A stretch of DNA of 54,247 bases, taken from IMG/VR virus record IMGVR_UViG_3300005918_000015; one strand, given 5' to 3'. The position numbers and the translations under genes were made by a program. Positions 5,711-51,180 of this stretch are shown in pieces. Within the stretch, counting starts at the first letter, position 1, and each line of letters opens with the position of its first letter. The notes under the pieces were generated by a model, which saw only the letters and a list, made by a program, of their open reading frames with translations, was not told the DNA's origin and did no database searches. This stretch comes from an uncultured virus (IMG/VR IMGVR_UViG_3300005918_000015). Its lineage: Duplodnaviria > Heunggongvirae > Uroviricota > Caudoviricetes.

Positions 5711-5740
5711 GGCTTAGTTTCAAGAAATTCTGGGTTGTTG
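5711..5740 (+). promoter_or_regulatory. bipartite repeated motif copy 4
   Basis: GGCTTAGTTT-CAAGAAATTC-TGGGTTGTTG. Confidence 0.8.
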
Positions 5741-9669: not shown

Positions 9670-10692
9670 ATGACAAAGAAAAAAACCCCAAGATCCGTAA
9701 ATGCCAGTTACGATCCAGACATGTACTTGAAATCACACAAAAATGTCTTCAAAGGTCTGAAAACCGAATTTGTATGGCTTACCCCTAAACTAGCCAAAGA
9801 ATTTATGGCTAGAAACATCAGTAAAAACAGAACCATGAATCCTAAACGCCTTGATATTATAGAAGGTGATATGGTGGGAGGCCTTTGGGGATTTAACGGA
9901 GATTCTCTTCGTTTTAACATTCCCAAAGACATGATTGATGGCCAGTACAGATGCCAAGCAGTCATCAACACAGGCATTACCATACCAGTAATGGTGCAGA
10001 CAGGACTCAGCAAAGAAGCCTTTGATATGTTGGATTGTCTTGGTAAATCCAGAACCTTCGGTGAAACTTTGAAAACCAAAAAATTCCAGAATGTTGATGT
10101 TTTGAATAAAACCTTAAAGATGGTGATTTCATTACGAGAGGATTTCAAACCAGGCAACGACCGTTTCCCTGATGTACATCATCAGGAAACATCCCCTGCT
10201 GTAAAACTCAAAACCATAATGTCTGAAAAAAACCTTTCCAATATTGTGGATCTTGTTTGTTACAAAGACAAGAACACCAATACCAAAAAAGACATTGAAG
10301 AAGCTGCCCCTGCCTATATGGTTGCAGCATTCTATCATGTATTCAACAAAATTGATGCTGAGAAAGCCAAAACCTTCAAGGAAGGTATGCCATTAGGTTT
10401 CACACCACCAAACAGCCCTTCCGGTAAAATGAGAAAATACCTTGCAGCCCTTGAAGTACAGAGATTGCTTAAACCTGAGTTGAAACTCACAGGCCGAAAA
10501 CTTCTGTACAAACAGATGTATGCTATCATCGTGGCCTGGAATGCTGAAATGAAAGGTGTCCCGTTGAACCCTAAAGCATTGGAGCTTGATCTGGAAAACG
10601 GTAAAGTAAAAGAGAACCTCATGCCTATGACTGAAATAGTTGGCTCTGAGAAGTATCTGGAATGGTTGAAAGCCAACGTCAAAGGCTTTTAA
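9670..10692 (+). CDS. ParB/Srx-like (DGQHR-type) domain protein
   Basis: LTPKLAKEFM..N..NR, DM..G.W.FNGD, IDGQYR; start MTKKK after AAAGGA RBS. Confidence 0.72.
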   Translation: MTKKKTPRSVNASYDPDMYLKSHKNVFKGLKTEFVWLTPKLAKEFMARNISKNRTMNPKRLDIIEGDMVGGLWGFNGDSLRFNIPKDMIDGQYRCQAVINTGITIPVMVQTGLSKEAFDMLDCLGKSRTFGETLKTKKFQNVDVLNKTLKMVISLREDFKPGNDRFPDVHHQETSPAVKLKTIMSEKNLSNIVDLVCYKDKNTNTKKDIEEAAPAYMVAAFYHVFNKIDAEKAKTFKEGMPLGFTPPNSPSGKMRKYLAALEVQRLLKPELKLTGRKLLYKQMYAIIVAWNAEMKGVPLNPKALELDLENGKVKENLMPMTEIVGSEKYLEWLKANVKGF

Positions 10693-14076: not shown

Positions 14077-15657
14077 ATGCCTGAATTAAAATGTTTTTAT
14101 CATGAAACTTTAATTTATTATGACGGTATTCAAGTTTTCAAAGCATTAGATGACGCCCGTAAAAAGGTTTATCTTGGAGTTTGTGTTGAGACTGGAAGTC
14201 TAGCAGATAAGTTTTTAGTCGTTGAAGTTAAACCTGACTCTGATTTATCTATAGAAAACCTGAGAACTCTAATCCTTGAACGCCCAAACCCTGAATGGTA
14301 TCTGTTACAGACAGATGACTTTGAAGGAGCACTTCTCCTAAAACAACAATCAGGTGATATCCCTGAAGAATATTTACCAGAGAAAGAGATCAATATGCCC
14401 CTTATTTCAAAAGCAGCAAAACTTCTGGATGTTCCTGAAAAGGAACTCCAAGAATTCGATATGCCTGATACTTTCAATCCGGGCAATACCATTGCCGGAT
14501 ACCTGTGCCGTCGTGGTGACCACCGATACGGAGCATTAGTCATTAATATGGTTAATGGTGTGGGTGTTGAACCTCAAGTTGTTTGGTGTACACCGAAGCT
14601 TCACTACCCCTTTGGTAGAACTGAAATGGAAGATCGTAACTACCATTTCCCCAAGAAAATCATCAGGGTTGGTGTCTATGAGAAACTGGACGGCACGAAT
14701 GTTCTGGCCTACTCCTATGCAGATGCAGAGGGAACACGGTACAGGACGTTCAAGACACGGCTGACCCCTATATTGTCAGACAACCGATTCGGAGCTCTGG
14801 CTCAAATGTGGAACGAGCTTCTGGAGGATAAACATCTTCAGATGATTACGTCTGTACAAGCTCTCAAAAACCAAACCCTCAGTTTCGAGATGTACGGCTA
14901 CCGGAATCCGCATCTTGTGGTATATAAAGATATTCCGCTGTCTGCCAAGCTGTTGTTTTCAGTGGATCAGATAGACCAGTCTATCCGACCGTCTAACGGG
15001 GTGTTCTTCGAGGATTGGGGGGGTGACCCTCCATATCAAATGTATGAAGATCAAGTCATGATGTGGCCAATGGCAGTCCTGACTGCCCCTCAGTGGGTTT
15101 TAGTACCAGAAGCTACCTTAGAGTCCCCAGAAGACCTTGTGGCCTTCTACGAGTCCAAGAGGGACGAAGCAGAGGCTCAGAACAAGAGCTTCGGGGAAGA
15201 CACCGACAAGACTATTGAAGGTATAGAAGGATTTATCTTTTATACCCTCGTGGAAGGCGGAGAATGGGAGATGTGGAAATGTAAACCACCCTCAGTGGAA
15301 GATATTCACTGGACTCAAGGCAACTCCGTTCCGATGACTGTCATCGTACCAACGGCCTGGAATGCTCTGGAATCCTGTGATGGTGAACTGACTCCCGAAT
15401 ACATTCGTAGTTTGTTGCTGGAAGAATTTAGCCCTGAGCAGGTCGGTAAATCCGAGATCCGAATCGGTAAAGCTGTAGCTTACATTAATGGCCGAGTGAA
15501 CCGGCAGATCAAAGTCAGGGCACTGTATGATGACTCTGGTTTGGATTGGGAAAAAGATGGCCGTGGGAATATTATGAGAATGCTATCAAAACATTTTGAC
15601 AGCAAAGAAATGAAGAAAGTGTATCAATCTTTGACTGAAATGGGGATTGTAAAATGA
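14077..15657 (+). CDS. ATP-dependent RNA-ligase-like nucleotidyltransferase with extra ~105-aa N-terminal domain
   Basis: Motif I YEKLDGTN, III FEMYG, IV EGFIF, V KCK; N-terminus YYDG.QVF resembles DUF6575. Confidence 0.75.
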   Translation: MPELKCFYHETLIYYDGIQVFKALDDARKKVYLGVCVETGSLADKFLVVEVKPDSDLSIENLRTLILERPNPEWYLLQTDDFEGALLLKQQSGDIPEEYLPEKEINMPLISKAAKLLDVPEKELQEFDMPDTFNPGNTIAGYLCRRGDHRYGALVINMVNGVGVEPQVVWCTPKLHYPFGRTEMEDRNYHFPKKIIRVGVYEKLDGTNVLAYSYADAEGTRYRTFKTRLTPILSDNRFGALAQMWNELLEDKHLQMITSVQALKNQTLSFEMYGYRNPHLVVYKDIPLSAKLLFSVDQIDQSIRPSNGVFFEDWGGDPPYQMYEDQVMMWPMAVLTAPQWVLVPEATLESPEDLVAFYESKRDEAEAQNKSFGEDTDKTIEGIEGFIFYTLVEGGEWEMWKCKPPSVEDIHWTQGNSVPMTVIVPTAWNALESCDGELTPEYIRSLLLEEFSPEQVGKSEIRIGKAVAYINGRVNRQIKVRALYDDSGLDWEKDGRGNIMRMLSKHFDSKEMKKVYQSLTEMGIVK

Positions 15658-16984: not shown

Positions 16985-17014
16985 GGCTTAGTTTTCGTTT
17001 CCCGTGGGTTGTTG
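16985..17014 (+). promoter_or_regulatory. bipartite repeated motif copy 9 (upstream of cas operon)
   Basis: GGCTTAGTTT-TCGTTTCCCG-TGGGTTGTTG. Confidence 0.8.
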
Positions 17015-17078: not shown

Positions 17079-19886
17079 ATGGATAAATATCTTCAACTCA
17101 CTCAAAACATTGCAGTTTTGTCTGGTCTGTTTCATGACTGGATTAAAGCCTCGGAGTTTTTTATAACAAAACTCCGAAAAAACGAAATTGTCCAAGACCC
17201 TCTAAGACATGATTGGCTATCTGCCGTGTTTTTTTCTTCTATAGTTGGGAAACAATCCGACCTTGAATGGCTTCAACAACTTATTGATGGGAATATCCCA
17301 TCAGAATTTAAAATACCTGACAACCCATTAGAAAATCTCCCAGACACAGCTGCCGTTATATTTTGGTTAATTTTAACGCATCACAGATTACCGATAATTG
17401 ATCGATATAGAGGAAAAAACTGTGGGGATTTTCGGAATCTTTTTAAGTTTATTTCGGCTGAGTGGGGATACCAACATCTTAAAACCCAAGGCTTAGAGAA
17501 ATGTTTTAAATTCCCTAAAGGATTACCAGACCATTCCCCTATTTTAGTACAACACATCCAGAAAGCAGCTCAGGATTTATATAATTCTATAGGTACGCTG
17601 GAGGAAGTAATCCAAAAAAGAAATCTTCGTACAATCCTGACTCAAGCTCGTATGGCTCTCATGTTAGCGGATCATTTCCATTCGTCCCAAGATGCTGACC
17701 CAAACTGGCCGAAGACATATCCTGTTTTTGCTAATACGTACCGAGACACTGGTAAATTAAAGCAACGGCTTGATGAACACCTTGTCGGAGTAGCTAATCA
17801 GGCAGCCTTCAATGTGAAATTTCTGCATGAGCTTGTGGACATTAATCACAAACACCAAGCCTACCCGTCACTCGTTATTAAAAGCCCCGCTGAATTTCAA
17901 TGGCAAGAAGATGCTGTCACAGTTATCCGAAACCAGTATCAAAAAGGAGGCTTTTTTGGGGTCAGTATTGCCAGTACAGGAACAGGTAAAACATTAGGTA
18001 ATGCTAAAATTATGCAAGCTCTATCGAAAGACGGGAAAGGACTTCATTATACATCAGCCCTTGGACTCCGAACCTTAACCCTACAAACTGGATTGGAATA
18101 CCGTGACCGGATTGGATTAACGGATAAAGATATGGCCGTTCTGATTGGTTCTACTGACAACCTGAATCCATTCTATGCAGGTTCAGAATCTGAAGACTGT
18201 TTATTAGATAATGAATTGATTGGGGGCTTGGCAGAAGCAGGGTTATCCCCAGTATTACGAGATGAAAAGAGCTGTCGGTTTTTCCACACTCCTGTGGTGG
18301 TTTGTACTATTGACCATCTAGTTGGGGCTACGGAAACTAGAAAGGGTGGCCGGTATATCCTACCTCTCCTTCGATTGATGTCTTCTGACCTAGTTATTGA
18401 TGAAATAGATAATTTCTCAAATGGAGACTCCGTTGTTATTGGCCATTTAATCCATCTTGCTGGGATGTTAGGAAGAAAAGTCCTCATTTCCTCAGCCACA
18501 ATTCCTCCTGATATGGCAGAAGGGTATTTTAATGCTTATCAGGCCGGTTGGGAAGAATTTTGTAAAAACCAATCTGAAAACCCTGCTGTTAGTTGTTTCT
18601 GGACAGATGAGTTTGGAGCAACACTTGAATCTGTGGAGACCCTGACTGAGTATCGGAAATACCATCAAGAATTTGTTGAACAGCGTGTCATAGAATTAGC
18701 TAAGAAACCAATCAGACACCGAGTTAATATAGGGGAAATCCAACCTGTTAAAAATGAAAGCCGTAAAAAAACAAAAAACAGATTTTTTAAATCCATGACA
18801 GATTGTTGTTTCGAATTACACAAGGACAATTACACTAAAGATGCCAAAACAGGTAAATTAGTGAGTATTGGTGTTATCAGAGTCAATACTATAAATACTT
18901 GTGTATCACTTACAAAACATCTCTTGAAAACCAAACTTCCACCTAATATCGATATCCGAACAATGGCCTACCACAGCCAACAAGTTATGGCCTTGCGTAA
19001 TGTTCAGGAGACTCATTTAGATAACGTGTTGAAAAGACACAAAGGTTCTCAAGCAATTTTTGATAACCCCATCATTAGAGAGCATGTAGATAATAGCTCG
19101 GCTGATCATGTGATATTTATTCTTGTAGCTACTTCAATCGAAGAAGTTGGTAGAGATCATGATTTTGATTGGGGTGTAATCGAACCATCCTCATTTCGGG
19201 CAATTATTCAGCTAATAGGACGTATATTACGACATAGGATGAAAAATGTTACACAACCTAATGTAACGATTATGCAGTATAACTTAAAAGGCTTGCTTGG
19301 AGACCGACTCCCTTTCAAACTCCCAGGCTATGAATCTACTCAGCATGTTTTCAATTCTCATGATATTACTAACCTCATTGATAAGGAGACTATCTGTGAA
19401 GGTTTGAATGCTACACCAAGAATTACCAAGAACACCCCCTTAGACCCCCAAAACAAGCTGGTAGACCTCGAACACACAATCACTCATGAAACCCTATCTG
19501 ATTACACCCAACAAGGGCCAGAGAGTCTTGCAGGCTGGGTTAAGACGTTTTGGTGGATGACTGCCACACCTCAAAAAATGAATAAGTTTCGGTCAGATTA
19601 TCCCTGCCTTCGAGTCTTCTTGATCCCCACGGATGATGGTCCTGTTTTTTTTGAAAAAACAAAAAGACATGGGATTCGAAAAATCGAATCCTTGTATGGA
19701 GTTAGGGTAAACAAGTCTGATGATGAAATGCCTTTGAAAAGATTATGGCTTCATAGAGATTTTGAAACTATTATTGATGGTTTGGACCTTATGATACACG
19801 GAGAAATCAACCTACCAACGTATGGTAAGGATAAAAATGAAATTCGTTATGAGTATTCTGACCAGTTTGGGTTAATTGCAAAATAG
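17079..19886 (+). CDS. cas3: type I-F Cas3 HD nuclease-helicase lacking N-terminal Cas2 domain
   Basis: LFHDW.KAS, LRH.W, THHRLP, LADH, KQRLDEHL, ASTGTGKT, ALGLRTLTLQTG, IDEID, SSAT, EVGRDHDFDW, IQL.GR..RHR. Confidence 0.95.
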   Translation: MDKYLQLTQNIAVLSGLFHDWIKASEFFITKLRKNEIVQDPLRHDWLSAVFFSSIVGKQSDLEWLQQLIDGNIPSEFKIPDNPLENLPDTAAVIFWLILTHHRLPIIDRYRGKNCGDFRNLFKFISAEWGYQHLKTQGLEKCFKFPKGLPDHSPILVQHIQKAAQDLYNSIGTLEEVIQKRNLRTILTQARMALMLADHFHSSQDADPNWPKTYPVFANTYRDTGKLKQRLDEHLVGVANQAAFNVKFLHELVDINHKHQAYPSLVIKSPAEFQWQEDAVTVIRNQYQKGGFFGVSIASTGTGKTLGNAKIMQALSKDGKGLHYTSALGLRTLTLQTGLEYRDRIGLTDKDMAVLIGSTDNLNPFYAGSESEDCLLDNELIGGLAEAGLSPVLRDEKSCRFFHTPVVVCTIDHLVGATETRKGGRYILPLLRLMSSDLVIDEIDNFSNGDSVVIGHLIHLAGMLGRKVLISSATIPPDMAEGYFNAYQAGWEEFCKNQSENPAVSCFWTDEFGATLESVETLTEYRKYHQEFVEQRVIELAKKPIRHRVNIGEIQPVKNESRKKTKNRFFKSMTDCCFELHKDNYTKDAKTGKLVSIGVIRVNTINTCVSLTKHLLKTKLPPNIDIRTMAYHSQQVMALRNVQETHLDNVLKRHKGSQAIFDNPIIREHVDNSSADHVIFILVATSIEEVGRDHDFDWGVIEPSSFRAIIQLIGRILRHRMKNVTQPNVTIMQYNLKGLLGDRLPFKLPGYESTQHVFNSHDITNLIDKETICEGLNATPRITKNTPLDPQNKLVDLEHTITHETLSDYTQQGPESLAGWVKTFWWMTATPQKMNKFRSDYPCLRVFLIPTDDGPVFFEKTKRHGIRKIESLYGVRVNKSDDEMPLKRLWLHRDFETIIDGLDLMIHGEINLPTYGKDKNEIRYEYSDQFGLIAK

Positions 19887-19899
19887 AAAGGATTTGAAA

Positions 19900-21135
19900 A
19901 TGGATATTGAAATCCAGAAGTTTTTTGATGAACGTATCAAGAAAAAAATTAAGCATGGAAGTCAAAATATACCTGATGAACAGATGCCTGATTTTGAGAA
20001 CAAAATCAGGGAGAATTTTGTTTTGGAAACGTGGTTGCCAATAGCTGCGGAAAAAGCAAAATTCGTTACTCTCCGAACCCACTCAGGGAAAATGACTCAC
20101 CCTAGTGCCCGGACATCTTCGTTCGTAGCCAAGAAACCCCAAGAAAATGATGGTTATCTTCGAACAGGGAATGTTTCTGTAGAAACAGATATGTGTGGAG
20201 GTGGGGCAGCCAGCCTAATCTATTATGCCTTCATGAACCTCAAGCTGACTGATGGGCAAACCATTTTAAGCCACCTACAAAAGTCTACTGACTATATCAA
20301 ACAGCAATTCGATATCCCTACAATGTCGTTCGATGACATCCAAAAAGGTTTTCTGGCTGTTTTTGATGAAACAGATGAAGACATTTATACTGATGGTTTA
20401 CTCCGAGAAGTATTTTTCCCAGTTGACGATGGTTATCATCTTCTGTCCATTACGAGCCCTTCTGGGATCATTTTTGCCCAAACTGACAAAATTGATAAAA
20501 TCCGTTTCTCAGAAGAAACTAAAGAAATCCGAAAACTTAAACGGCAGGGAAAACCGTCAGATAAAGGTTTTACCGAATTTTTTGACCTGACCATTGCCAA
20601 CTATGGAGGTTCTCAACCTCAGAACATCGGAGCTCTCAACAGCAAGTACAAAAAAGTATACTTGTTATCAGCTTCCCCACCTCAGTTTAAAAAACGGAAA
20701 ACCAAGCTACCCAAAACGAACTTTATGTCTATTCTGTGGGTAAAAGGCTTTCAGAGGTCTTTCCAGAAATTTCATACTCAGATAGCTATTAAAAAACAAA
20801 ACCAACATAGCCGTCTCCGACGTGATAACCATATTCGGTTCATTGTGGACCAAATCTCTAAACAGATGTGGGCAGTTCGACAGACTGAGCCTGGATGGTC
20901 TAATTCAGATACCTATAGATCATTGCCCAGACATCAAAAAATCTGGTTGGATCAACAGTATGCTGGCAACCGCTATGACAATCCCGATTGGATGGGCAAA
21001 GTAATTGCTGATATTAGCAGATGGTTCATCAACTCTTATAACACCCTGCTCGGTTCTGATGCAGAGTTGCTTGACGATACTGATTTGAGACATGTGGAAA
21101 CTATCATTCAAGAATGTGAGGAGGCCATCCGATGA
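19900..21135 (+). CDS. csy1: type I-F Csy1 (Cas8f)
   Basis: WL..AA..A, TH..K.THP, DGYLRTGN, VFFPV...YHLLS, YGGSQPQNI..LN; position after cas3. Confidence 0.93.
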   Translation: MDIEIQKFFDERIKKKIKHGSQNIPDEQMPDFENKIRENFVLETWLPIAAEKAKFVTLRTHSGKMTHPSARTSSFVAKKPQENDGYLRTGNVSVETDMCGGGAASLIYYAFMNLKLTDGQTILSHLQKSTDYIKQQFDIPTMSFDDIQKGFLAVFDETDEDIYTDGLLREVFFPVDDGYHLLSITSPSGIIFAQTDKIDKIRFSEETKEIRKLKRQGKPSDKGFTEFFDLTIANYGGSQPQNIGALNSKYKKVYLLSASPPQFKKRKTKLPKTNFMSILWVKGFQRSFQKFHTQIAIKKQNQHSRLRRDNHIRFIVDQISKQMWAVRQTEPGWSNSDTYRSLPRHQKIWLDQQYAGNRYDNPDWMGKVIADISRWFINSYNTLLGSDAELLDDTDLRHVETIIQECEEAIR

Positions 21136-22025
21136 AAGACATTTTACTGATACCAAAGATACAAGCTGAAAGTGCCAATGCTCATTCCAGTCCATACTCC
21201 GGCGGATTTCCTGCTATGACGGCTTGGATGGGTTTTGCTCATTTGCTTGAAAGAAAACTTCAACAGACTTCTTATGCAGGGATCAAGTTTAAAAGTGTTG
21301 GGGTGGTGAGTCATGATTTTACTTTGAGAAATTTTAAGCACCCCAAGGATTTCTGTTCCGCTATTATTGGCAGACGTTTACCCCCTCAAAACCCTAGTCA
21401 AAAAGGGGCACCTCTGATTCCCGACTTAACCTGTGACCTAACGGTTTCTATAGTGTTGGAATGTTCAGGGATGGGGATGATAGATCATGAAGATTTCACC
21501 AACACTATTAGGAAAATCATTTATAGTCTTAAATTGGCTAGTGGTGATATTGTAAACCTCCAAAAACCAGAAGTTCTCACCGTCCATGATGAGAAAAGCC
21601 AAAAAACCCTGCTCCGTCGGCTTATGCCAGGTAACTGTCTGATTGAACGTCGGGATCTGATACAGAAAGCTATGGAAAACGGCCAAGATGCCCTTGAAGC
21701 TGTTCTTTCTCATACTTGTATAGAACACTCATATAATGAGGTAACAGATAAGTGGGAAAGTAAACGGAAAACATCAGGTTGGCTGGTTCCAATTACTACA
21801 GGTTATCAAGGACTCACTAAATTGGGTCCTGCTGAAAACACACGAGATGCAAACGATACCCCACACCGATTTGCTGAAGCTATTGTAACATTATGTGAAT
21901 TTATCATGCCATATAAAATTGTCGAACTTGATAACATGCTATGGCACTATCATTCTGATATGAACAAAGACCTTTATCTTTGTCAACAGAATAAACCTAC
22001 ATACTCAGGAGAAAACTATGTCTAA
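21132..22025 (+). CDS. csy2: type I-F Csy2 (Cas5f)
   Basis: ANA.SSPY..GFPAMTAW.GF.H.LER; GWLVP...GYQ; H.FAE. Confidence 0.94.
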   Translation: MKDILLIPKIQAESANAHSSPYSGGFPAMTAWMGFAHLLERKLQQTSYAGIKFKSVGVVSHDFTLRNFKHPKDFCSAIIGRRLPPQNPSQKGAPLIPDLTCDLTVSIVLECSGMGMIDHEDFTNTIRKIIYSLKLASGDIVNLQKPEVLTVHDEKSQKTLLRRLMPGNCLIERRDLIQKAMENGQDALEAVLSHTCIEHSYNEVTDKWESKRKTSGWLVPITTGYQGLTKLGPAENTRDANDTPHRFAEAIVTLCEFIMPYKIVELDNMLWHYHSDMNKDLYLCQQNKPTYSGENYV

Positions 22026-23049
22026 AGTCAAAATCCCCGGGAATTTGTCATTCCGCAAGCGTTTAGAACCCTCAAAAGGAATCCTTTTTGGAACTTCCTG
22101 GGACAAACGCCGAGAAATTTGTGTCCCTTTAACCAATGAACTTATCACTGTCAGAGGTGGTAAAACTCACCACCAAAATTTCCCTGACAATCGTGAGAAA
22201 GGTGAGTCTGAGTTGGGTGATGCCAACATCCACACTCTTGATTCCTGTTTGTTGTCCAAGGATCACGATACCGTGCGTTTAACTTACACCTTGAAAGTTC
22301 TCAACGGTGTTGCCGGTATGGAAAGCTGTAATGACAAAGAATTCCTTAACCTGTTCGAGGAATGCTTAAAAGAAAAACTGGATACTGTTGGAGTGAAAGT
22401 TCTGGCCCATCGTTATGCCACCAACATTGCCAATGGTCGTCCTTTGTGGAAAAACCGTGAAGCTACCCATATTGAAACGGTCGTTCGTTGCCGTGGCAGT
22501 GAGACAGAGTGGGTTTTTGACGGTAAAGAAATCCCATTGCATACTTTCGATTATGAAAGTTCTGCATTGACAGGGCTAACTCAAGTCATTGAAGATGCTT
22601 TGTTAGGTAACACTGACCTTATCATTCTGGAAGTGTCCTCATACGCTTTGGTCGGTCAAGGTCAGCCGGTATTCCCCAGTCAAGAATTCATTCAGGATCA
22701 AGGGAATGGTTTCAGCTCGAAGAAAGACGGGAAGAAAAGCAAAGTTTTATACTTCCCCGAAGATGTAGCCGGCCTGCACCCGCAAAAAATCGGTAATGCC
22801 ATCCGTACTATTGATTCATGGTATGGAGACGGTGTCTCTCCGATTGCTGTGGAACCTTACGGTGCCCAGCCTACTTTCAATACCCATCACCGTAGCCCTT
22901 ACGAACAAAAGGACTTTTATTCCATGTTGGTGAAATTTGTGAACAAGGAAGAATTGACCGAATCCGAAGTTCATTACTTCATGGCCATGCTGGTCAAAGG
23001 TGGTGTGTTTGGTGCAGCCAAATCCAAGCCTAAACCCAAATCCAAGTAG
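22018..23049 (+). CDS. csy3: type I-F Csy3 (Cas7f)
   Basis: LSF.K.L.PS, RYA.NIANGR.LW.NR, VFPSQE, H.QKIGNAIRTID.WY, IAVEPYG, L.KGGVFG. Confidence 0.96.
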   Translation: MSKVKIPGNLSFRKRLEPSKGILFGTSWDKRREICVPLTNELITVRGGKTHHQNFPDNREKGESELGDANIHTLDSCLLSKDHDTVRLTYTLKVLNGVAGMESCNDKEFLNLFEECLKEKLDTVGVKVLAHRYATNIANGRPLWKNREATHIETVVRCRGSETEWVFDGKEIPLHTFDYESSALTGLTQVIEDALLGNTDLIILEVSSYALVGQGQPVFPSQEFIQDQGNGFSSKKDGKKSKVLYFPEDVAGLHPQKIGNAIRTIDSWYGDGVSPIAVEPYGAQPTFNTHHRSPYEQKDFYSMLVKFVNKEELTESEVHYFMAMLVKGGVFGAAKSKPKPKSK

Positions 23050-23061
23050 GAGAAAAAGAAC

Positions 23062-23631
23062 ATGAAATACTACCAAGAAATTACGTTGATCCCTGACCCT
23101 GTTGGGATGCCCCTGAGTTATTTACAGCAACGTCTGTTCTATCAGGTTCATGCAGCCTTGGCTCGTGAACCTGGGGATAATTCCGTGGGTATATCTTTCC
23201 CTGATTACGATGGGGAAGGATGCCAACTGGGAAATAAAATAAGGTTGTTAGCTCCGACTGAGGATATTTTAAAAAACCTTCAACTTCGACACCTACTTCT
23301 CAGGTTAAGTGATTATTCTCATTTGTCAGATATCCGACAGGTGCCTGAGAAAATTGAAAGCTATGCTTTTTTTCGTCGGGTTCAACCGAAAACCAGCCTT
23401 GGCAGCATAGCTCGTCGAAAAGCTAGACGTGAAGGGATTACAGTTGATGAAGCCTTGAATCTTTTAGGACCACCTAAAAAAACACCCAAACTCCCCGCTG
23501 TTTCAATGGAGAGTAAAAGTTCAGGTCAACAATATCCTTTGTTTGTTTCCCGAGTTTTATCTGATGAGCCAGCTACGGGGTCATACAGTACGTATGGATT
23601 GAGTTCCACAGGTACTGTACCTTTATTTTAA
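23062..23631 (+). CDS. csy4: type I-F Csy4 (Cas6f) crRNA endoribonuclease
   Basis: YQEITLIP, VH.AL, GISFPDY, LG.KIR, ARRKARR helix, S.SSGQ, YGLS...TVPLF. Confidence 0.96.
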   Translation: MKYYQEITLIPDPVGMPLSYLQQRLFYQVHAALAREPGDNSVGISFPDYDGEGCQLGNKIRLLAPTEDILKNLQLRHLLLRLSDYSHLSDIRQVPEKIESYAFFRRVQPKTSLGSIARRKARREGITVDEALNLLGPPKKTPKLPAVSMESKSSGQQYPLFVSRVLSDEPATGSYSTYGLSSTGTVPLF

Positions 23632-23637
23632 TCAAAA

Positions 23638-23680
23638 CAAAAAACCTAAGTGGTTATGGCTACTTAGGTTTTTTGCTTTT
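23638..23680 (+). terminator. rho-independent terminator after csy4
   Basis: CAAAAAACCTAAGTGG…CTACTTAGGTTTTTTG inverted repeat with T tail. Confidence 0.75.
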
Positions 23681-23749
23681 AACATTGGTAAAAACATGTA
23701 ATCATGTATAGGTCTTTGAAAACTCAATAGTTTTATGATTTATGCTCCT
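23681..23749 (+). promoter_or_regulatory. CRISPR leader
   Basis: AT-rich non-coding segment next to the least-degenerate repeats; imperfect IHF-like ACTCAATAGTTTT at 23722-23734. Confidence 0.65.
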
Positions 23750-25684
23750 GTGAACTGCCGAGTAGGCAGCTTAGAATAACAGTTTGTACCGGTATTGTTT
23801 GGCAGATGTGTGAACTGCCGAGTAGGCAGCTTAGAATCTGCTCTGGAAATTTTGAGTATCCATACTGCCGTGAACTGCCGAGTAGGCAGCTTAGAATTGT
23901 TTGATTTTCTGACTCATTCCACCGAACGGGTGAACTGCCGAGTAGGCAGCTTAGAATTGTTTTGTCGAACCGACATTGATTTTTGAAAAGTGAACTGCCG
24001 AGTAGGCAGCTTAGAATTGGAGGTCAGAAAGGAAACGGTAACTATGTCTAGTTAACTGCCGAGTAGGCAGCTTAGAATTCAGACAATAATTCAAGAAAGT
24101 ATCAATTAAAGTGAACTGCCGAGTAGGCAGCTTAGAATTGGAAAACCATAGAATCAGAGAAGCTGGATTCGTGAACTGCCGAGTAGGCAGCTTAGAATAC
24201 ATGTGTCGTAACCGTGTTCACGAAAAATTCGTGAACTGCCGAATAGGCAGCTTAGAATGGGTAACGATGACGTTGGAAAATGTAGACAGAGGTACACTGC
24301 CGAACAGGCAGCTTAGAATGACAGGTCGCATCGTGAATTTCTGGATCTGAAGTTAACTGCCGAGTAGGCAGCTTAGAATATTGATATTGATGCTAATAAC
24401 GGCAGTGATGAGTGAACTGCTGAATAAGCAGCTTAGAATACAAGTCACAATATTGGATTAGCAAGCACATAGTTAACTGCCGAATAGGTAGTTTAGAATT
24501 TGCTTTTTTGTGACTGTACCTAGAACCTGTGGTTAACTGCCGAGTAGGCAGCTTAGAATCGAAGAACACGTCGGATCTCCCTGAAAATATCGTGAACTGC
24601 CGAACAGGCAGCTTAGAATAGTTCATCACACAAGGCCATTAGCTCGTCCACCGTTAACTGCTGAACAGGTAGTTTAGAATACAGGGAATCTGCGGACTTT
24701 GCCAACCTTGATGTAAACTGCCGAATAGGCAGCTTAGAATTGGTCAACCGAACTACACAAAATGTCTTTTGCATGAACTGCCGAGTAGGTAGTTTAGAAT
24801 TGTCCTGAAATGCCTGTTGTCACAAATGAGATGTTAACTGCCGAATAGGCAGTTTAGAATTATGTGGGATCAAAGCTCTCCCAAGGGTGGGTGTTAACTG
24901 CCGAGCAGGCAGCTTAGAATCATGTATAAGTTGCTCTCAATCCACAATTTAGGTGAACTGCTGGATAAGTAGTTTAGAATAATTTAATCAGGTCATTCAT
25001 AACGGCCATTTTAGTTAACTGCCGAATAGGCAGCTTAGAATTCTTGTTGGATGCAAGTGTCTTATCAACATTTGTTAACTGCCGAATAGGCAGCTTAGAA
25101 TTGAGACAGATCCCAAAGCTGAAATCGAATCCAGTGAACTGCCGAACAGGCAGCTTAGAATAAGGAACAGAAGCAGCTAGTTCAATTGGTACTGTTAACT
25201 GCCGAACAGACAGCTTAGAATGAAATTCCTTCATCCACATATTCGGCAACTATGTGAACTGCCGAACAGGTAGTTTAGAATTTTATGGAACTCACTACGA
25301 CCGCCAGACCGGATCGTGAGCTGCCGAATAGGTAGTTTAGAATCTATTGACACCAAAGCAGATTGAATCCGCGGGAACTGCCGAATAGGCAGCTTAGAAT
25401 GATGAAACTCTATGACGAGGAACGAGTGGAGGGTGAACTGCTGAATAAGCAGCTTAGAATACAATCGAATCAATGCCGTCTAAAAGCTCCGCAGGAACTG
25501 CTGGATAAGCAGCTTAGAGTTCGTATGGAGTAACCGTGAAAAACTGCCGGACAGGTAGTTTAGAATTTAGAAATAAGGGTGTGGCATTGAAGCCGAGTGA
25601 AAACTGCCGAATAGGCAGCTTAGAATAAGCACATCAGCTATGTTAAACCGCACTGCGTGAACTGCTGAATAAGTAGCTTAGCTT
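23750..25684 (+). CRISPR. type I-F CRISPR array, 33 repeats / 32 spacers
   Basis: 28-bp repeat GTGAACTGCCGAGTAGGCAGCTTAGAAT with CTGCC/GGCAG hairpin; spacers mostly 32-33 bp; repeats degenerate toward the 3' end. Confidence 0.99.
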
Positions 25685-25752: not shown

Positions 25753-27300
25753 ATGGCCAAAACAATCATTGATAGTGTTACTTTAAATTTTACTGACCTT
25801 ACCGGTGCCAAGACAGGCTGTACCAAACTCGGTTCCAACAAATTCTGGAAGGGCTGGGTTGAAGACCTTGGAGACGGCACAGGCAATTTCGAGTGTTGCT
25901 GGGGTGCTACAGGCACACCAGGTAAAGACACCGGAAGCAAACGAGGTATTGACCTTGATGATGCCCAAACCTTGCTCAATAAGAAAGTTAAATCAAAAGT
26001 AAAAAAAGGTTATACCCTCCTTGAAGTTCGTTCCGATGAGGAAGAGGTGGCCAAGGCTGCTGACAACGGTGTAAACCTCACTGCTGACAAGAAAGCCCCC
26101 AAAAAGAAAAAAGCTGTCAAGAAATCAACTTTCAATCCTGCTATCGGAAACTTGCTGGCTACCATCTATAATGAAACCAGCCGTGTTGTCACAGCAGGTC
26201 TTTCCTCTCAGGCTGGCTCATCTGCTGATAACCCTATAGGTAACCTGTCTGATGCCCAGTTAGACGTAGGTGGTGGCATTTTGGACGATATAGAGGCATT
26301 CCTGACACAGGAACTTGGCCATGAAGACACAGCTAACCGTGTTCAAACCTTGGCTTTGTCTGCTGATGGTGTACCTTCTGATGGTGTCATTGATTTGACT
26401 AATCAGTACATGTCGAATGTTCCGAGAGAAATTGACCGTTCACAAAGAGGTAGAGGCAACCTGCATCGTCTGGTTATTTCATCCTTTGAACGCTTGGAAG
26501 AGCAACGAAAGTTTTTACAGTTGCTTCGTGATGCTCACCTGACCAAAGGTGTCTTTAAAGCTGCTGCTAATGCTTCTACAGGTGGTAAAGAACAGATTTG
26601 GTATGAAGGCCTCAATTGCCTTATCGAATTGTGTGAGTCTGGATCAGCCGAATTCAAGAAAGTGTCAGACATATTCAACAACAACCAATCTCGTAAAAAC
26701 CAGAACTGGTTCAGTGGTGGACGTTCTACTCTCCGCTTGAAACGGATTTTCAAGTTCACTCGTAATGGTACAGACAAACAGTTTGCCAAGTATGCTAAAG
26801 AGATGGCTTCCAAGCCCAATGCAGTCGGCAATATTTTTGCTTGGCACGGCACACGTACTGAGAACCTTCTCGGTATCAGTAAAACTGGCCTCTTGATGCC
26901 TGAAAACTTGCCTCGTGGTATCCACGTATCAGGTAAAGCTTTCGGCAAAGGGATTTATCACGCCCCTGATATTTCAAAAATAAGAACCATTCACGGTGTG
27001 CAAACAGATGGTACGAATGGAGCTTTGAAGTCTATGAACTATACCTCTTCAAGGGGAGCTTATTACGGTTCAAATAACACTTCAAATTCGGCCTTCATGT
27101 ACCTGCAGGAAGTTGCTTTAGGTAACGGTGATGTTCATACAGCCCCTTGCTGGGACAAACACCGTCCGAATAACTACCCGAAGAACGATTTCATTTATGC
27201 AGCAGCCGGCGGTTGTAGCACGTTATCCCATGATGAATTGGTAACTTTTTCTCAGGATGCTCAAATATTCCGCTATTTGCTTGAGATTGAAGCAAGATAA
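25753..27300 (+). CDS. PARP-like ADP-ribosyltransferase (WGR-like + helical regulatory + catalytic domains)
   Basis: SNKFW…WGATG…K.KKGY (WGR-like); PIGNLS.AQL and LTNQYMS.VP (regulatory); WHGTR, GKAFGKGIY, KS.NY, EVALG, DELV.F….RYL (H-Y-E triad). Confidence 0.9.
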   Translation: MAKTIIDSVTLNFTDLTGAKTGCTKLGSNKFWKGWVEDLGDGTGNFECCWGATGTPGKDTGSKRGIDLDDAQTLLNKKVKSKVKKGYTLLEVRSDEEEVAKAADNGVNLTADKKAPKKKKAVKKSTFNPAIGNLLATIYNETSRVVTAGLSSQAGSSADNPIGNLSDAQLDVGGGILDDIEAFLTQELGHEDTANRVQTLALSADGVPSDGVIDLTNQYMSNVPREIDRSQRGRGNLHRLVISSFERLEEQRKFLQLLRDAHLTKGVFKAAANASTGGKEQIWYEGLNCLIELCESGSAEFKKVSDIFNNNQSRKNQNWFSGGRSTLRLKRIFKFTRNGTDKQFAKYAKEMASKPNAVGNIFAWHGTRTENLLGISKTGLLMPENLPRGIHVSGKAFGKGIYHAPDISKIRTIHGVQTDGTNGALKSMNYTSSRGAYYGSNNTSNSAFMYLQEVALGNGDVHTAPCWDKHRPNNYPKNDFIYAAAGGCSTLSHDELVTFSQDAQIFRYLLEIEAR

Positions 27301-27765: not shown

Positions 27766-28132
27766 AAAAGGTGAAAAAAGGCACATAAACCCAGATGGTA
27801 ATATTGGTGGGAAAGTTAGTTTCGGTTCTTTTGTTTCGAAAGATTCCTTTATATCATATGATTCTATAGTCCAATCAGGGTCTACAGTAAAAGAGAAGTC
27901 CACGGTAATACAATCTACTATTTCGGGTAAATCAATTATTCGGAATAATAGTTTTGTACGACGGTATGTTGTTTGGGAACAGTCTATTGTAGATAATAGT
28001 AATGTAGATAATTCTTCAACTAATAAGGAAGAAATACACACATCCATTATACAAAATTCACAAGTGGCTAATTGCAGCCTTGTGAATTGCTACGGTATTA
28101 AAAATATGGAAATTAAAAAGGTAACAAAATGA
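27755..28132 (+). CDS. beta-helix (hexapeptide-like) repeat protein
   Basis: HINPDG..GG.V followed by [SN]S.[IV] periodic repeats. Confidence 0.55.
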   Translation: MRLKKGEKRHINPDGNIGGKVSFGSFVSKDSFISYDSIVQSGSTVKEKSTVIQSTISGKSIIRNNSFVRRYVVWEQSIVDNSNVDNSSTNKEEIHTSIIQNSQVANCSLVNCYGIKNMEIKKVTK

Positions 28133-30633
28133 TAAAAACGGAACAGTTTATCAACCAGCTTACTAAAGCCTTGGTTGAAAAAGACGTTGAGAATGTTTAC
28201 CGCCAGTTATTCCAAATGGGGATACCTGACAGTGTGATTACTTCTCCCTATGGTGGTGATGGTATGTTGAAAAGTAAAGCTGAGAACCTGATAGCTCTAC
28301 TTGAATTCAAATATGACTATGACTTCACCAGTCGTAAAGACACCATCAAAGTTCTGATACAGGCTTTATACTATCTTAAAAAGGCTGAGTCTGCCGGGGA
28401 TATCCTTCCTTCAATTGTTTTTGTCGGGGATAAAAACGAATGCTTTGTTATTCATTTGAATAGCCTTCAAAAGTATTTGGATGCTGATATTGATTGGACG
28501 ATTGCCCCTTCAAGTGCTGGGGTTAAAAACCCAGAACTGACATTGGAAATGTTCAATGATAAAGAAGTGAACCCTTTCGTATTTGATGTAGGTAAAGGGT
28601 TCGATTTCTCAGAAGTTGTCAACAAAATACTGGACTTGAACAGTAATGTCGTTCGGTTGGTTCGTATCACTGAGAAAAACATCAATAACATCTTTGAATA
28701 TTTCGTTGGGAAAGTCTTGGTGACCTCAAAGAAGCTGGACACCAATGCTCAAGTAAGCCTGTTCATCAATATCCTGACCAATCCTGATGAGAACTACATC
28801 CATCCGAAAAAGAAAAACACCCTGATTACACCTGCCGGTGAAATTACAGTTAAAGGTGCAAAGTTTGCATCCTTCTTCTCTCACTTTGAACGGGAATACA
28901 AGCCCTCAGAGAAAGAGAACCTGATAGCTATTTCCGACCGGTTAATTGAGGACGAAACCCGCCGGAGAGAGGGTGCATTTTTCACCCCAACAATCTGGGT
29001 AGATGAAGCTCATAAAATGATTACGGAGCAATTCGGCTCGGATTGGAAAGAGAAGTATGTTGTTTGGGATTGTGCCTGTGGAACAGGTAATTTGACTCGT
29101 GATTATAAATTCAAGGAATTATATTGTTCTACCTTGGTGCAAGAAGAAATTGATATGATGATTCAGAATAGGATTAATCCTGAAGCTGTAAAGTTTAAAT
29201 ATGATTTTTTGCAGGATGTACCTGAAGGGGTTGTCACAGGTTTTGGTGGTGGTTGGGAAGAGAAATTACCTGAAGGTCTGGTTAAAGCCCTTGATGAAGG
29301 CAAACCTATGATTATGTTGATCAACCCTCCTTATGGTACAGCAAGTAATCGAGACGAATCTTCTAAAAAAGGAGTTGCTTTTAACCAGGTGAATGCTGAA
29401 ATGAAAGCTGATAAATTAGGAGCTTGTTCCCAGCAACTTTATGCACAATTCATGTATAAAATTGCTCGTATTAAAGAGCATTACAGTCTAGCAGATATGA
29501 ATGTGGCTATTTTCAATAAGCCAAACTTTTTAACCGCCCCCACCTACAAGAAATTCCGTTCTTTTTGGGTTAGCCAATTCAGAATGAAAAAAGGGATGTT
29601 GTTTCAAGCTAGTAATTTCTCGGATGTTTCCACTCAGTGGGGGATTCTGTTTAGTATCTGGAAATCAGGAGGTTATGGAAAATATATGACCTGGGTTCAG
29701 GCTGATGTTAAAGAACAGGTTCCTGTTAAAGGCTTGGGTTTGAATACCATCCAAACGATAGGTACAAAAGATTTTGATAATATGGACAATAACTACCCTG
29801 CTTCAAAGTGGGTCAGGGAAGAAACCAAAAATGATAGAGTATCTTTTAAATATGTCTTATGTTTAAAGTCATCTATAAATATAGGAAACAAGATCAAAAC
29901 TCTTCCTATAAATGCTTTTGGGACTTTCATATCCGATACAAATACTGTTTATCAAAACTCACAAGGGGTAGTAATACTTAACACACGAAATTCTGCAAAT
30001 CAGGGTTCTTTACCTATAATCCCTGAGAATTTCCGCAAGGTTTGCTCCCTCTTTACAGCCCGTAAAACCATAACAGGGAAATATGCCAACTGGATAAACG
30101 ACAAGGATGAATATAAAAGACCAAACCAAACCCACGATGATTATGAACAATGGAACAACGATGCTATTATTTATTCTTTGTTTCACTCAGCCTCAAACCA
30201 GTCTTCACTCAGAGATATCACGTACAAAGATAAGCAGTGGGATATTGAAAACGAATGGTTCTGGATGTCTATTGAATCAATCAAAGGGTTGGCCAATGAA
30301 CACTCCAATCAGGCCGTCTATGACGACTGTAAGGCTAAAGGCAAGGAAAGGCATGTTTGTACCCTCCTGAAGGATTTAAAGCTCTCTGACGATGCCTCAG
30401 ACCTTTTAGTTGAGGCCAACAAATTGGTCGAGAAATCTTTCAAGTTCCGTGAAATGATGAATGAAGAACACCCTGAATATCACCTCAACTCCTGGGACGC
30501 TGGCTGGTATCAGATCGTCAAGATCCTCAAGGAATACCTGCCTGATGACCTGAAAGAGTTCCGTTTAGGGTATAAGAAGCTGGAGGATAGACTCCGAAGT
30601 GGAGTTTATCAGTTTGGTTTCTTGAGGATGTAA
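28129..30633 (+). CDS. type IIG-like restriction endonuclease / N6-adenine methyltransferase fusion
   Basis: N-terminal E.DVEN…DG…LLEFK (PD-(D/E)xK-like); GAFFTP; motif I VWDCACGTGNL; motif IV INPPY. Confidence 0.8.
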   Translation: MIKTEQFINQLTKALVEKDVENVYRQLFQMGIPDSVITSPYGGDGMLKSKAENLIALLEFKYDYDFTSRKDTIKVLIQALYYLKKAESAGDILPSIVFVGDKNECFVIHLNSLQKYLDADIDWTIAPSSAGVKNPELTLEMFNDKEVNPFVFDVGKGFDFSEVVNKILDLNSNVVRLVRITEKNINNIFEYFVGKVLVTSKKLDTNAQVSLFINILTNPDENYIHPKKKNTLITPAGEITVKGAKFASFFSHFEREYKPSEKENLIAISDRLIEDETRRREGAFFTPTIWVDEAHKMITEQFGSDWKEKYVVWDCACGTGNLTRDYKFKELYCSTLVQEEIDMMIQNRINPEAVKFKYDFLQDVPEGVVTGFGGGWEEKLPEGLVKALDEGKPMIMLINPPYGTASNRDESSKKGVAFNQVNAEMKADKLGACSQQLYAQFMYKIARIKEHYSLADMNVAIFNKPNFLTAPTYKKFRSFWVSQFRMKKGMLFQASNFSDVSTQWGILFSIWKSGGYGKYMTWVQADVKEQVPVKGLGLNTIQTIGTKDFDNMDNNYPASKWVREETKNDRVSFKYVLCLKSSINIGNKIKTLPINAFGTFISDTNTVYQNSQGVVILNTRNSANQGSLPIIPENFRKVCSLFTARKTITGKYANWINDKDEYKRPNQTHDDYEQWNNDAIIYSLFHSASNQSSLRDITYKDKQWDIENEWFWMSIESIKGLANEHSNQAVYDDCKAKGKERHVCTLLKDLKLSDDASDLLVEANKLVEKSFKFREMMNEEHPEYHLNSWDAGWYQIVKILKEYLPDDLKEFRLGYKKLEDRLRSGVYQFGFLRM

Positions 30634-34115: not shown

Positions 34116-34268
34116 GTTTTGAAAAATTCATGTTAACGGAAAATTTTGAAGTTAATACCTGTTGGGACTGTGAGTCCCGGATAGGTGAGGAATGTAGTTA
34201 TGATGGTCATGAGGTTTTTCCTGACAGTGAAATCTGTGACCAATTTTCAAAAACGGAGGTCACCTAAA

Positions 34269-35438
34269 ATGGCACGAGAAGCAACAATACAAAGAATTGA
34301 AACGATTAGCCCTATCAAGAAAGCTGATTTTTTAGAACTAGCTACATTTGAAGGGTTAGGCTGGACATGTGTAGTTAAAAAAGGGGACTTTAAACCCGGT
34401 GACCCCTGTGTTTACTTCATGATCGATAGTGAACTGCCCCCAGAAGCACCGTGGGCAGTTTTCTTGGCCGAAAAAGGTAGCACACGTATCAAAACGATGC
34501 GTCTCCGTGGAGCTTTGTCTCAAGGACTGGCTTTGAAGACCAGTATCCTGATGGAATCCCTTCATCCTGATAATGATGAAATCATTACAGGTATTCAGAG
34601 TGATAGTATGGGTATTGAATTCACTACTGAATCTGGTTGGCAAGACCCGGTTCGGTGGGGGTATGACGTGACCCATATGCTGGGTGTCAAACACTACGAG
34701 AAGCCGATCCCTGAAGGGATAAGCGGAGATCCAAAGGGAGCATTCCCCGGGTACATTCCGAAAACTGACGAAACGACACTCCAGAACATTCCGGCTATCC
34801 TACAAGAGATGGAAGGACAGGAAATATATGTCACAGTTAAATGTGATGGTACTTCCACGACGTTTGCCCAACTCGACGGTGATATAGATATCTGTGGCCG
34901 TAACTGGTCTATGAAGGAGTGGTCTCGTGAGGATGATCCTGATGGTAAGCCACCCATTCACAACCTGTACTGGATTATGGCTCGAAAATACGGAATCTTG
35001 GATATTCTCAAGGAACATGACGGGATTGCTATCCAAGCTGAAATGGTAGGCCCCGGAATTCAAGGTAACCGCCTCGGCCTCGACGAAACAGAAATTCGTG
35101 TATTCGATATCTGGGATATTAAGAAAGCTCAGTACTATGACTTTGAAGACCTCTGGAGTTTCTGCCAGAGATACAAACTCCCGATGGTTCCGATAGTTTA
35201 CCTGACGGGTAGTGATTCTCAGAACCACCTGTGTTCTGAGACTGTAACAATGGAAGGACCTATGTTGACTCAGGAATACTGGTTGAGGATAGCTGAAATT
35301 CGTCATTACCTCGGCACGGAGAATCGTATCGAAGGACTCGTCACCCGTACCTGCAAAGCTCAGTACTTGGACGGTGTTCAGAACAGGGCTTCTTTCAAGG
35401 CTTTGAATAACATGTTTCTGTTGAAAGACGAGGAGTAG
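34269..35438 (+). CDS. RNA ligase, DRB0094 family (N-terminal OB domain)
   Basis: ATIQRI..ISPI..ADFLE, VVKKGDFKPGD.CVYF.IDS.LP, LRGALSQGL, IPKTDE, KCDGTS, EMVGPGIQGN, FDI, EGLV, SFKA.NN.FLLK. Confidence 0.93.
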   Translation: MAREATIQRIETISPIKKADFLELATFEGLGWTCVVKKGDFKPGDPCVYFMIDSELPPEAPWAVFLAEKGSTRIKTMRLRGALSQGLALKTSILMESLHPDNDEIITGIQSDSMGIEFTTESGWQDPVRWGYDVTHMLGVKHYEKPIPEGISGDPKGAFPGYIPKTDETTLQNIPAILQEMEGQEIYVTVKCDGTSTTFAQLDGDIDICGRNWSMKEWSREDDPDGKPPIHNLYWIMARKYGILDILKEHDGIAIQAEMVGPGIQGNRLGLDETEIRVFDIWDIKKAQYYDFEDLWSFCQRYKLPMVPIVYLTGSDSQNHLCSETVTMEGPMLTQEYWLRIAEIRHYLGTENRIEGLVTRTCKAQYLDGVQNRASFKALNNMFLLKDEE

Positions 35439-37549: not shown

Positions 37550-37750
37550 ATGGAAAATTTAGCTGAAGTAGATGTTGAGGTTTTAGTTCATGGTGAAAAA
37601 GCCGTGAAAGTTACCAATGGTGTTATGGTGTGTTGGGTCAATTACAAGATCATCGATGATGATTCAGAAGTTCACGAGAAAACCCCAGTCGGCACAACGG
37701 CCACTTTAGTCATCCCTGAATGGAAAGCTGTCGAAGAAGGTCTTGTATAA
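37550..37750 (+). CDS. small hypothetical protein
   Basis: AAGGAG RBS; EKAV…W…IPEWKA.EEGL. Confidence 0.65.
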   Translation: MENLAEVDVEVLVHGEKAVKVTNGVMVCWVNYKIIDDDSEVHEKTPVGTTATLVIPEWKAVEEGLV

Positions 37751-38744
37751 TCTGACGGATTTTTTCAATGTCTGTTACTTTAACATCAGGGTTACAAGGT
37801 AGGCAAATAATCCGTTTGAACATTCGTGTTGCATTTGGCATATCAAGAACTGGACGATAATACTGTCGAGCATCAACACCTTCATTTTTCAGTTTCTGAA
37901 TCACTTCCTCAGCATTATCTAAGAATATCGGAAAACAGAAAGGCACACTGTTCTCCCCAACGTCAGGAAGTACCTCAAAACCATCGAAAACGGCTCTGTA
38001 TTGGACGTTTAGAGCTTGAAGGTGTCCTTTTATACCCTCAAGATTCCTAATCAAGTGGGCATGGATATAAGCTGCCGTGATACAATTCATTTTCCCATTA
38101 AAACCAAGATCTTGATGGCTTATTGATATCCCGAAATTGAGAATGGACCGAACAGTTTTCTCATATGCTTTCTTAACTATAGCCACACCACCCTCAGCAA
38201 ACCCGATTTGTTTCGTATGATGCAGGCTGACGATTGAAGCATCTCCATAATTAAGACTGTTTTTACCATTAAAGAATGAGAACGGTGTGGCTGCATTATC
38301 AAATACCAAGAGTTGTTTGCCTTGACCGGCCAGTTTCTCGTATTCTACTGGGGATCGTTGAAGCATTCCGAATAGGTTGGTTACGATCAGAACCTCAGAA
38401 TCAGGCAGTTCTTTGAAATTGAGGTCGTCATCAACGTCTGTGATCGTGGCTCCCTTGAGGGGTCCTTCAATGTTACTAGGGAACGTAAATGCTGGAGTGC
38501 CTGCCGATGAAATTCTATGATGGATATGGAAAGCAATGATGATAGCGTGTATGGCTGCTGTACCGTTGACAGATGCTATTACAGCTCTATCATCTTCTAT
38601 GGCCAGTTCGGCTCGGAGGTAGGTTTCCAGAGCTTGTACGGCTGGTCCGTAATTAGATAATTGGTTGCTAGATACAGAGGATGCCATCAAAACCGTGGCC
38701 AGAGAGTGATCAGGTTTCTTGTGATTCAACCATGGTATTTTCAT
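37710..38744 (-). CDS. DegT/DnrJ/EryC1/StrS family PLP-dependent sugar aminotransferase
   Basis: NYGP, NGTAAI, FTFPS, DNAA, SLHHTK…EGG, GFNGKM, YYRP, CLP. Confidence 0.9.
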   Translation of the reverse strand: MKIPWLNHKKPDHSLATVLMASSVSSNQLSNYGPAVQALETYLRAELAIEDDRAVIASVNGTAAIHAIIIAFHIHHRISSAGTPAFTFPSNIEGPLKGATITDVDDDLNFKELPDSEVLIVTNLFGMLQRSPVEYEKLAGQGKQLLVFDNAATPFSFFNGKNSLNYGDASIVSLHHTKQIGFAEGGVAIVKKAYEKTVRSILNFGISISHQDLGFNGKMNCITAAYIHAHLIRNLEGIKGHLQALNVQYRAVFDGFEVLPDVGENSVPFCFPIFLDNAEEVIQKLKNEGVDARQYYRPVLDMPNATRMFKRIICLPCNPDVKVTDIEKIRQIIQDLLRQLSIQG

Positions 38745-40785: not shown

Positions 40786-40789
40786 CTGA

Positions 40790-42087: not shown

Positions 42088-42090
42088 AAT

Positions 42091-51150: not shown

Positions 51151-51180
51151 CAACAACCCACAACTTTAAGAAACTAAGCC
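51151..51180 (-). promoter_or_regulatory. bipartite repeated motif copy 14
   Basis: Minus strand GGCTTAGTTT-CTTAAAGTTG-TGGGTTGTTG. Confidence 0.8.

Follow-up and report, generated by a model that had tools for sequence, protein, structure and literature searches.

What, if anything, does a probable jumbo phage gain from a CRISPR spacer that reads as part of a restriction gene? The question is raised by spacer 15 of a type I-F array in an uncultured virus record (IMG/VR IMGVR_UViG_3300005918_000015), of which the whole stretch of 54,247 nucleotides analyzed here is called the window. A first-pass annotation had placed an HsdS-like peptide on the reverse complement of this spacer, and both the coordinates (24620-24652) and the frame were borne out: the spacer separates repeats 15 and 16 (Table 1), and its reverse frame 2 encodes VDELMALCDE, the remaining CT being part of a Leu codon.

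Table 1. Positions of the features discussed, counted from the first letter of the window.
Feature	Position	Strand	Remarks
Promoter-like motif before cas3	16985..17014	+	The window has 15 copies in all
Cas3f	17079..19886	+	935 aa; Cas2 domain absent from the N terminus; carries HD nuclease and SF2 helicase motifs
Csy1 / Cas8f	19876..21135	+	PF09611
Csy2 / Cas5f	21132..22025	+	PF09614
Csy3 / Cas7f	22018..23049	+	PF09615; nearest relatives 38-44% identical
Csy4 / Cas6f	23062..23631	+	PF09618
Leader	23632..23749	+	Short, AT-rich, with an inverted repeat; 3' of cas6f
I-F CRISPR array	23750..25684	+	33 repeats of 28 nt, 32 spacers; distal repeats diverge, 5-bp stem kept
Repeat 15	24592..24619	+	Source of the 5' handle of crRNA 15; hairpin intact, -8.9 kcal/mol
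Spacer 15	24620..24652	+	33 nt; complementary to the coding strand of type IB-like hsdS at the conserved helix
Repeat 16	24653..24680	+	3' hairpin of crRNA 15; -6.0 kcal/mol
WGR-PARP_reg-PARP protein	25753..27300	+	Adjoins the array 3'; a neighbor, no role in the system claimed
Probable REase-MTase fusion	28129..30633	+	834 aa; type IIG-like; FFTP, DCACGTG and NPPY motifs

Spacer 15 is derived from the conserved helix of hsdS. With a degenerate back-translation of its peptide as the search pattern (Phe also allowed at Leu codons), 71 stretches were matched in GTDB genome contigs and one in viral contigs, and all of the 72 distinct sites that remained when duplicate contexts were removed from 82 lay in-frame within a helix of the xxEQxRIxxxVDELMALCDEL type; by uniform-base arithmetic, about 0.004 chance matches were expected in 596 Gb. 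Methylase_S (PF01420) was matched by each of the 66 site-bearing ORFs at E ≤ 0.01, and in 64 of these the match reached the gathering score. Nineteen loci in metagenome contigs matched a narrower pattern, and the 18 printed sites besides L074 showed the same helix. L074, the sole exact match to spacer 15 in these contigs, is a second copy of the array itself and agrees with the window without a difference across 17,388 bases, array included. GTDB genome contigs held no exact copy of the spacer, and no perfect protospacer was found in GTDB or JGI contigs. A blastn search against plasmids returned two records, both at E = 3, the top-ranked hit lying inside an annotated 'restriction endonuclease subunit S'.

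The neighbors of these sites narrow the source further. EcoEI_R_C was present at all nine loci with an HsdR among 61 neighbor proteins scanned, and because EcoEI is described as a type IB enzyme (PMC3874165), we assign the source of spacer 15 to a type IB-like hsdS, defined by a Methylase_S domain together with adjacent EcoEI_R_C HsdR and HsdM, both of which were found; locus L002 is annotated as EcoAI/FtnUII family. In HsdS of the type IB EcoAI/EcoEI family, a conserved dimerization region stands beside the variable TRD (PMC3874165), and it is this region that appears to have supplied spacer 15; HsdS is here a target and not a CRISPR system. The earlier identification of a conserved HsdS helix thus stands on the 66 Methylase_S ORFs, but the helix marks type IB-like (EcoEI/EcoAI) subunits and not type I broadly.

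Type I-F systems use a 5'-CC PAM and a seed at positions 1-5, 7 and 8, with every sixth position tolerated (PMC7305327), so that GG is expected directly 3' of a match on the hsdS coding strand. GG followed 48 of the 72 sites, the PAM being absent from the search pattern. In a set of 90 exact-peptide sites (L074 and L002 excluded; L085 and L090 are absent from metagenome site scoring, presumably through the duplicate filter), GG followed 66%, a share reached at only 6 of 210 regional offsets (mean 0.068). Resting as it does on one spacer and on look-alike sites, not true targets, this register supports an origin of spacer 15 in acquisition by I-F adaptation machinery.

Target quality was scored by effective mismatches, that is, those outside crRNA positions 6, 12, 18, 24, 30 and 33. 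The PAM and an intact seed were found at 25 of the 90 sites, and only seven of the 90 also had two or fewer effective mismatches; the guide is therefore not pan-hsdS. The expectation that the targeted region would be shared among hsdS alleles accordingly holds only to a limited extent. Matches were also expected to fall in hsdS beside the I-F PAM, and most of the best ones do: L011 (Caproicibacter) agrees at 31/33 positions with GG, L038 (Desulfobacteraceae) at 30/33 with GG and no effective mismatch, and L083 at 30/33 with GG and one effective mismatch. L078 reaches 31/33 without a PAM. Under a wobble model of 71 synonymous sites, the probability that one or more of them has two or fewer mismatches is 0.08, rising to 0.44 for three or fewer, and because it makes such scores plausible, the best matches do not identify the host. 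Caproicibacter, for which no other spacer matched, was rejected as host on these grounds.

Several of these properties are what one would expect of a dedicated guide disabling the host's type I R-M across specificities. The helix is specificity-independent and occurs twice per hsdS gene, with GG beside both copies in L083, and codon wobble positions coincide with the tolerant crRNA positions 6, 12, 18, 24 and 30, although that phase is a 1-in-3 coincidence. The element also encodes a probable adenine methyltransferase of its own, suggestive of R-M pressure; this putative REase-MTase fusion has weak PADLOC MTase matches and falls in ESM Atlas clusters of MTases, mostly viral, with no Pfam, PHROG or phage tblastn match. 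Against such a guide, good targets are few, and none of 401 genomes from the class of Marinomonas had a spacer 15 site within three mismatches. An assembled enzyme would, moreover, cut incoming DNA regardless, and the host MTase would protect progeny, acquisition of host modification being a listed route of restriction evasion (PMC3874165). The proposal that the system is directed at restriction is therefore its weakest mechanistic reading, since loss of hsdS would leave pre-assembled enzyme in place, and we regard an anti-restriction guide as very doubtful.

Could the system act at all? The operon runs Cas3-Csy1-Csy2-Csy3-Csy4 (17079-23631) with separate Cas8f, Cas5f, Cas7f and Cas6f, as in subtype I-F1, and its 28-nt repeats with a 5-bp Cas6f hairpin and its spacer lengths (32 nt in 24 of 32, fitting the ~32-nt spacers of I-F1) agree with that subtype. 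The Cas2-Cas3 fusion of I-F1 is missing: alignment to a 1076-aa I-F Cas2/3 (E = 7e-146) starts at residue 115, the end of the Cas2 domain, and the space before cas3 is only 104 bp. The cas1 gene of I-F1 was likewise not recovered, a Pfam scan of 59 of the 106 ORFs listed in the window giving no Cas1 match. A His of Csy4 aligns at the position of the catalytic His of P. aeruginosa Csy4, and, judged by motifs, the interference module looks intact; on sequence grounds, Cas2-less Cas3 with Csy1-4 is a compact I-F interference module. Cas3 scored 491 bits against the P. aeruginosa-type I-F protein and 299 bits against the 930-aa PDB 8k22, presumably ICP1 Cas2/3, and is 45% identical to a Marinomonas protein versus 38-41% to two Desulfobacterota ones. 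Csy3 is 32% identical to ICP1 Csy3, and no relatives of Csy3 or of the repeat were found in IMG/VR.

The array is oriented on the plus strand, its leader end following cas6f and its degenerate repeats at the opposite end; a search of the leader for a sigma-70 or terminator consensus found none. The 33 repeats fall into 22 distinct versions, yet stem cells are paired in 99.1%, with four compensatory cells, a state reached by 0 of 500 shuffles (controls that ignore the relatedness of the repeats). In silico, both repeats flanking spacer 15 fold alone, repeat 16 with two G-U pairs in its stem and two A-U pairs extending it, and the joined repeat-spacer-repeat favors a long-range fold. Diversified yet functional repeats may limit spacer loss through recombination. 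Among recurrent repeat variants along the array, C18T is mostly accompanied by C21T, lengthening the stem, and spacers 27 (29 nt), 30 (18 nt) and 32 (30 nt) are short.

Where adaptation genes are missing, an array should not change, and this one is static. The region was found in 18 salt-lake metagenome runs, nine with half its words or more; four runs compared showed no other letters in the array, and the L074 array is identical. Pieces from runs X1, X2 and X4 span spacer 15 (X1 is possibly the window's own source). An apparent gap over spacer 15 in run X3 and its 752-base joint (side 23 letters) were rejected as evidence. An X3 contig corresponding to window 24318-25071 has two repeats joined around 30 letters foreign to the array, which may be another spacer, from an array related to this one.

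The cas-array cassette might also have been inherited, captured from a bacterium whose own CRISPR had gained the spacer against an R-M-carrying plasmid, ICE or prophage, with the phage merely its carrier. Consistent with such a history, neither cas1 nor cas2 was found in the window, spacer 15 is placed in the array's older, degenerate stretch, and hsdS look-alike sites also occur on a recombinase-flanked element (L011), a plasmid-collection record and a viral contig. Long residence is indicated instead by a repeat distinct from the bacterial I-F repeats found, by a Csy3 at most 44% identical to any relative and by the element's own motif on the operon; sites with zero or one effective mismatch, moreover, still exist. 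We consider mere carriage of an inherited memory improbable.

The motif in question is bipartite, GGCTTAGTTT-N9-GTGGGTTGTTG, and occurs 15 times in the window versus 0-1 times in each of 10 shuffles. Copies lie at 1015, 2752 and 5696 on the minus strand, at 5712, 7307, 7544, 9575, 14026, 16986, 25681, 27363, 31352 and 33883 on the plus strand, and at 51179 (minus) and 51196 (plus), upstream of genes in the contexts printed, with two overlapping divergent pairs and one copy overlapping the last CRISPR repeat. The cas operon, ligase and PARP genes have it in common, and a polymerase or sigma factor encoded by the phage probably uses it as a promoter; because it precedes cas3, expression of the cas operon seems tied to that of the element itself. 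The motif was also seen once before a ribosome-binding site and ATG in an IMG/VR fragment rated 14% complete (L110, genome G1197, 10001-10029), which has large virion-like ORFs and no ORF in common with the window, so that it counts as a lead only.

Two window proteins recur unchanged on a 402,136-base contig. RNA ligases, ThyX, an NAD ligase and a phosphoesterase, along with numerous ORFans, among neighbors with mostly viral matches (PHROG and viral clusters), point to a probable jumbo phage of ~400 kb. A giant plasmid-like element stays as an alternative of low probability because no capsid, terminase or tail gene was recognized in the window.

Among known systems, the element's CRISPR belongs with the adaptation-less CRISPR of huge phages and would work like the I-F system of ICP1, from which it departs in Cas1, Cas2 and multiple anti-element spacers. 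ICP1 carries Csy1-4 and Cas3 on its phage genome, as this probable phage would, and its host-chromosome spacers act indirectly by processive degradation (10.1101/381962; PMC11656645); they block PLE through Cas2-3 processivity, up to ~23 kb away (10.1101/381962). ICP1, however, has Cas1, Cas2-3 and many anti-PLE spacers, whereas this locus lacks the Cas2 domain, shows no cas1 within the window and has a long and static array. Huge-phage systems share large size, lack of Cas1/Cas2 and some spacers against bacterial genes, with sigma-70, glycyl-tRNA synthetase and intergenic DNA among the bacterial targets (PMC7162821); their median array has six repeats versus 33 here, and the words 'restriction' and 'I-F' are absent from the main text of that report (PMC7162821). 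The Cas12r system of Thermus phage Lalka is similarly directed against defense-enriched host integrative elements, one with a type III R-M, but it has a type V effector and many matched protospacers, none placed inside an R-M gene in the text (10.64898/2026.04.20.719267). The literature searched contained no case of a phage spacer directed against an R-M gene.

A recognizable target was found for one of the 32 spacers, so that multiple anti-element spacers are not in evidence, perhaps through a detection limit set by an absent host genome. When the spacer peptides were compared with the proteins encoded at the collected loci, the score of spacer 15 was 52 and that of the runner-up 37, while none of 179 shuffled spacers exceeded 43; the loci were chosen via spacer 15, so the scan tests mainly the other 31, among which it found no second R-M-derived spacer. 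The likeness of spacer 28 to HsdS (score 36) lies inside the null range and was rejected, as was a weak match of spacer 24, without a PAM and with eight mismatches. The other spacers had no match in seven best-match genomes and nothing beyond chance in 41 relatives. A 401-genome sample from the phylum of genome G002 gave only I-F repeat matches and G002 itself (at most two candidates scored per genome). Spacers 1-3 had no hits in IMG/VR, the whole array gave only repeat or chance matches at E ≥ 0.6 against phages and none by megablast against plasmids, and no self-matches of spacers (at least 29 nt, at most nine mismatches) were seen elsewhere in the window among the matches listed.

These results give weight to neutral capture, by which spacer 15 would be a chance sample of host DNA made during infection, kept because a lytic phage loses nothing when its host is cut and because the array cannot turn over, and recognizable only through its unusually conserved source. 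An R-M origin in one of 32 spacers, the other 31 without an identified target, and a static array fit this account, as does the ~4% of chromosomal spacers taken up by ICP1 (10.1101/381962). Yet hsd operons are a small share of a genome, with an estimated 5-15% chance of such a spacer among 32 random host spacers; hairpins are maintained around spacer 15; and it lies in the conserved helix and not in the variable TRD, a placement that recognizability biases. We see neutral capture as somewhat unlikely in itself and as a close rival of the reading that we favor.

That reading, tentatively preferred and held as nearly an even prospect, is that spacer 15 serves as an entry point for Cas3 into a defense island or mobile genetic element (MGE), by way of an adaptation-less, interference-competent I-F system of a probable jumbo phage. 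The spacer would have been taken up by I-F Cas1-Cas2/3 from a type IB hsdS helix beside a CC PAM, with acquisition machinery supplied by the host in trans or by the locus itself before its loss. During infection, the Csy complex with crRNA 15 would load at hsdS, from which Cas3 would degrade DNA processively outward. The useful target would be the defense island or mobile element where hsd operons usually sit, or host DNA generally, rather than restriction enzyme that the cell has already made. Of the elements of this reading, the hsdS origin, the PAM register, the intact motifs, the conserved hairpins and the island-like surroundings of look-alike sites were observed; that the element is a phage, its host, expression of the system, cleavage and any benefit are inferred.

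An island or MGE entry point is favored because the neighborhoods of look-alike sites hold integrases and defense genes and because ICP1 chromosomal spacers act on neighbors. In 13 close-match loci scanned, an integrase or recombinase lay beside hsdS in three (L011, L038, L029) and other defense, TA or MTase-type genes in eight (L010, L018, L037, L038, L043, L063, L078, L079), the kinds of genes near hsd operons being Abi/TA/SIR2-HerA/Mrr and integrases. Several observations weigh against the entry-point reading: the missing perfect protospacer, the other spacers without matches in best-match genomes, the hsdS of L083 adjoining the core genes tig-clpPX-lon, a phage-like spacer GC (mean 0.42, the phage 0.41), a Cas3 nearer to the Marinomonas protein than to those of Desulfobacterota, and the want of a second R-M-like spacer. 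The counter-defense analogy with ICP1 drawn in the first-pass annotation gains from the hsdS origin, the PAM and the intact interference motifs and loses from the single R-M spacer and the lack of Cas2 and cas1 in the window; with one spacer and no true target, it is plausible only in an indirect form.

A stronger version, which we consider unlikely, would have selection retain a guide against a twice-repeated, specificity-independent stretch of hsdS with wobble on tolerant positions, an escape-resistant Cas3 address for destroying defense islands or R-M mobile elements across host strains, in an array whose diversified repeats resist spacer loss. If selection for an entry point is true, a phage CRISPR uses an innate-immunity gene as a generic way in; should it be no more than a bystander, it illustrates the bias that gene conservation brings to the spacers recognized in phage arrays. 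Targets of most jumbo-phage spacers are unknown, and spacer 15 is confidently assigned to a core innate-immunity gene. In the literature surveyed, ICP1 was the only phage CRISPR tested experimentally (PMC11656645), joined since then by Lalka Cas12r. The expected PAM and a natural site without effective mismatch allow a direct test of whether phage Cas3 clears a defense island.

L083 (genome G1023) belongs to the same Desulfobacterales family as the L038 genome, so that this family holds the best functional matches; sites were present in 3 of 52 genomes of the family and in 3 of 401 of the order, which hints at a Desulfobacterales host for the element; relatives of CinA, UDP-sugar dehydrogenase, ligase and PARP gave no informative host signal. 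Within 6 kb of L038 (1-6111), a complete hsdS occurs together with an integron-like tyrosine integrase and the 3' half of an orphan hsdS; this half holds the best functional match, and the arrangement suggests specificity shuffling.

Elsewhere in the window, the WGR-PARP_reg-PARP protein has partial relatives in eight phage records. An 11-gene cluster for sugar-nucleotide, glycosyltransferase and methyltransferase functions occupies the minus strand at 37710-49459, with no bipartite motif inside; its dehydrogenase has close metagenome relatives (79-88%). Two RNA ligases, Rnl1-like by ESM Atlas (14077-15657) and Rnl2-like by Pfam (34185-35438), could make up a counter-defense set for RNA repair together with the phosphoesterase and a kinase-like gene of the AAA_33 type.
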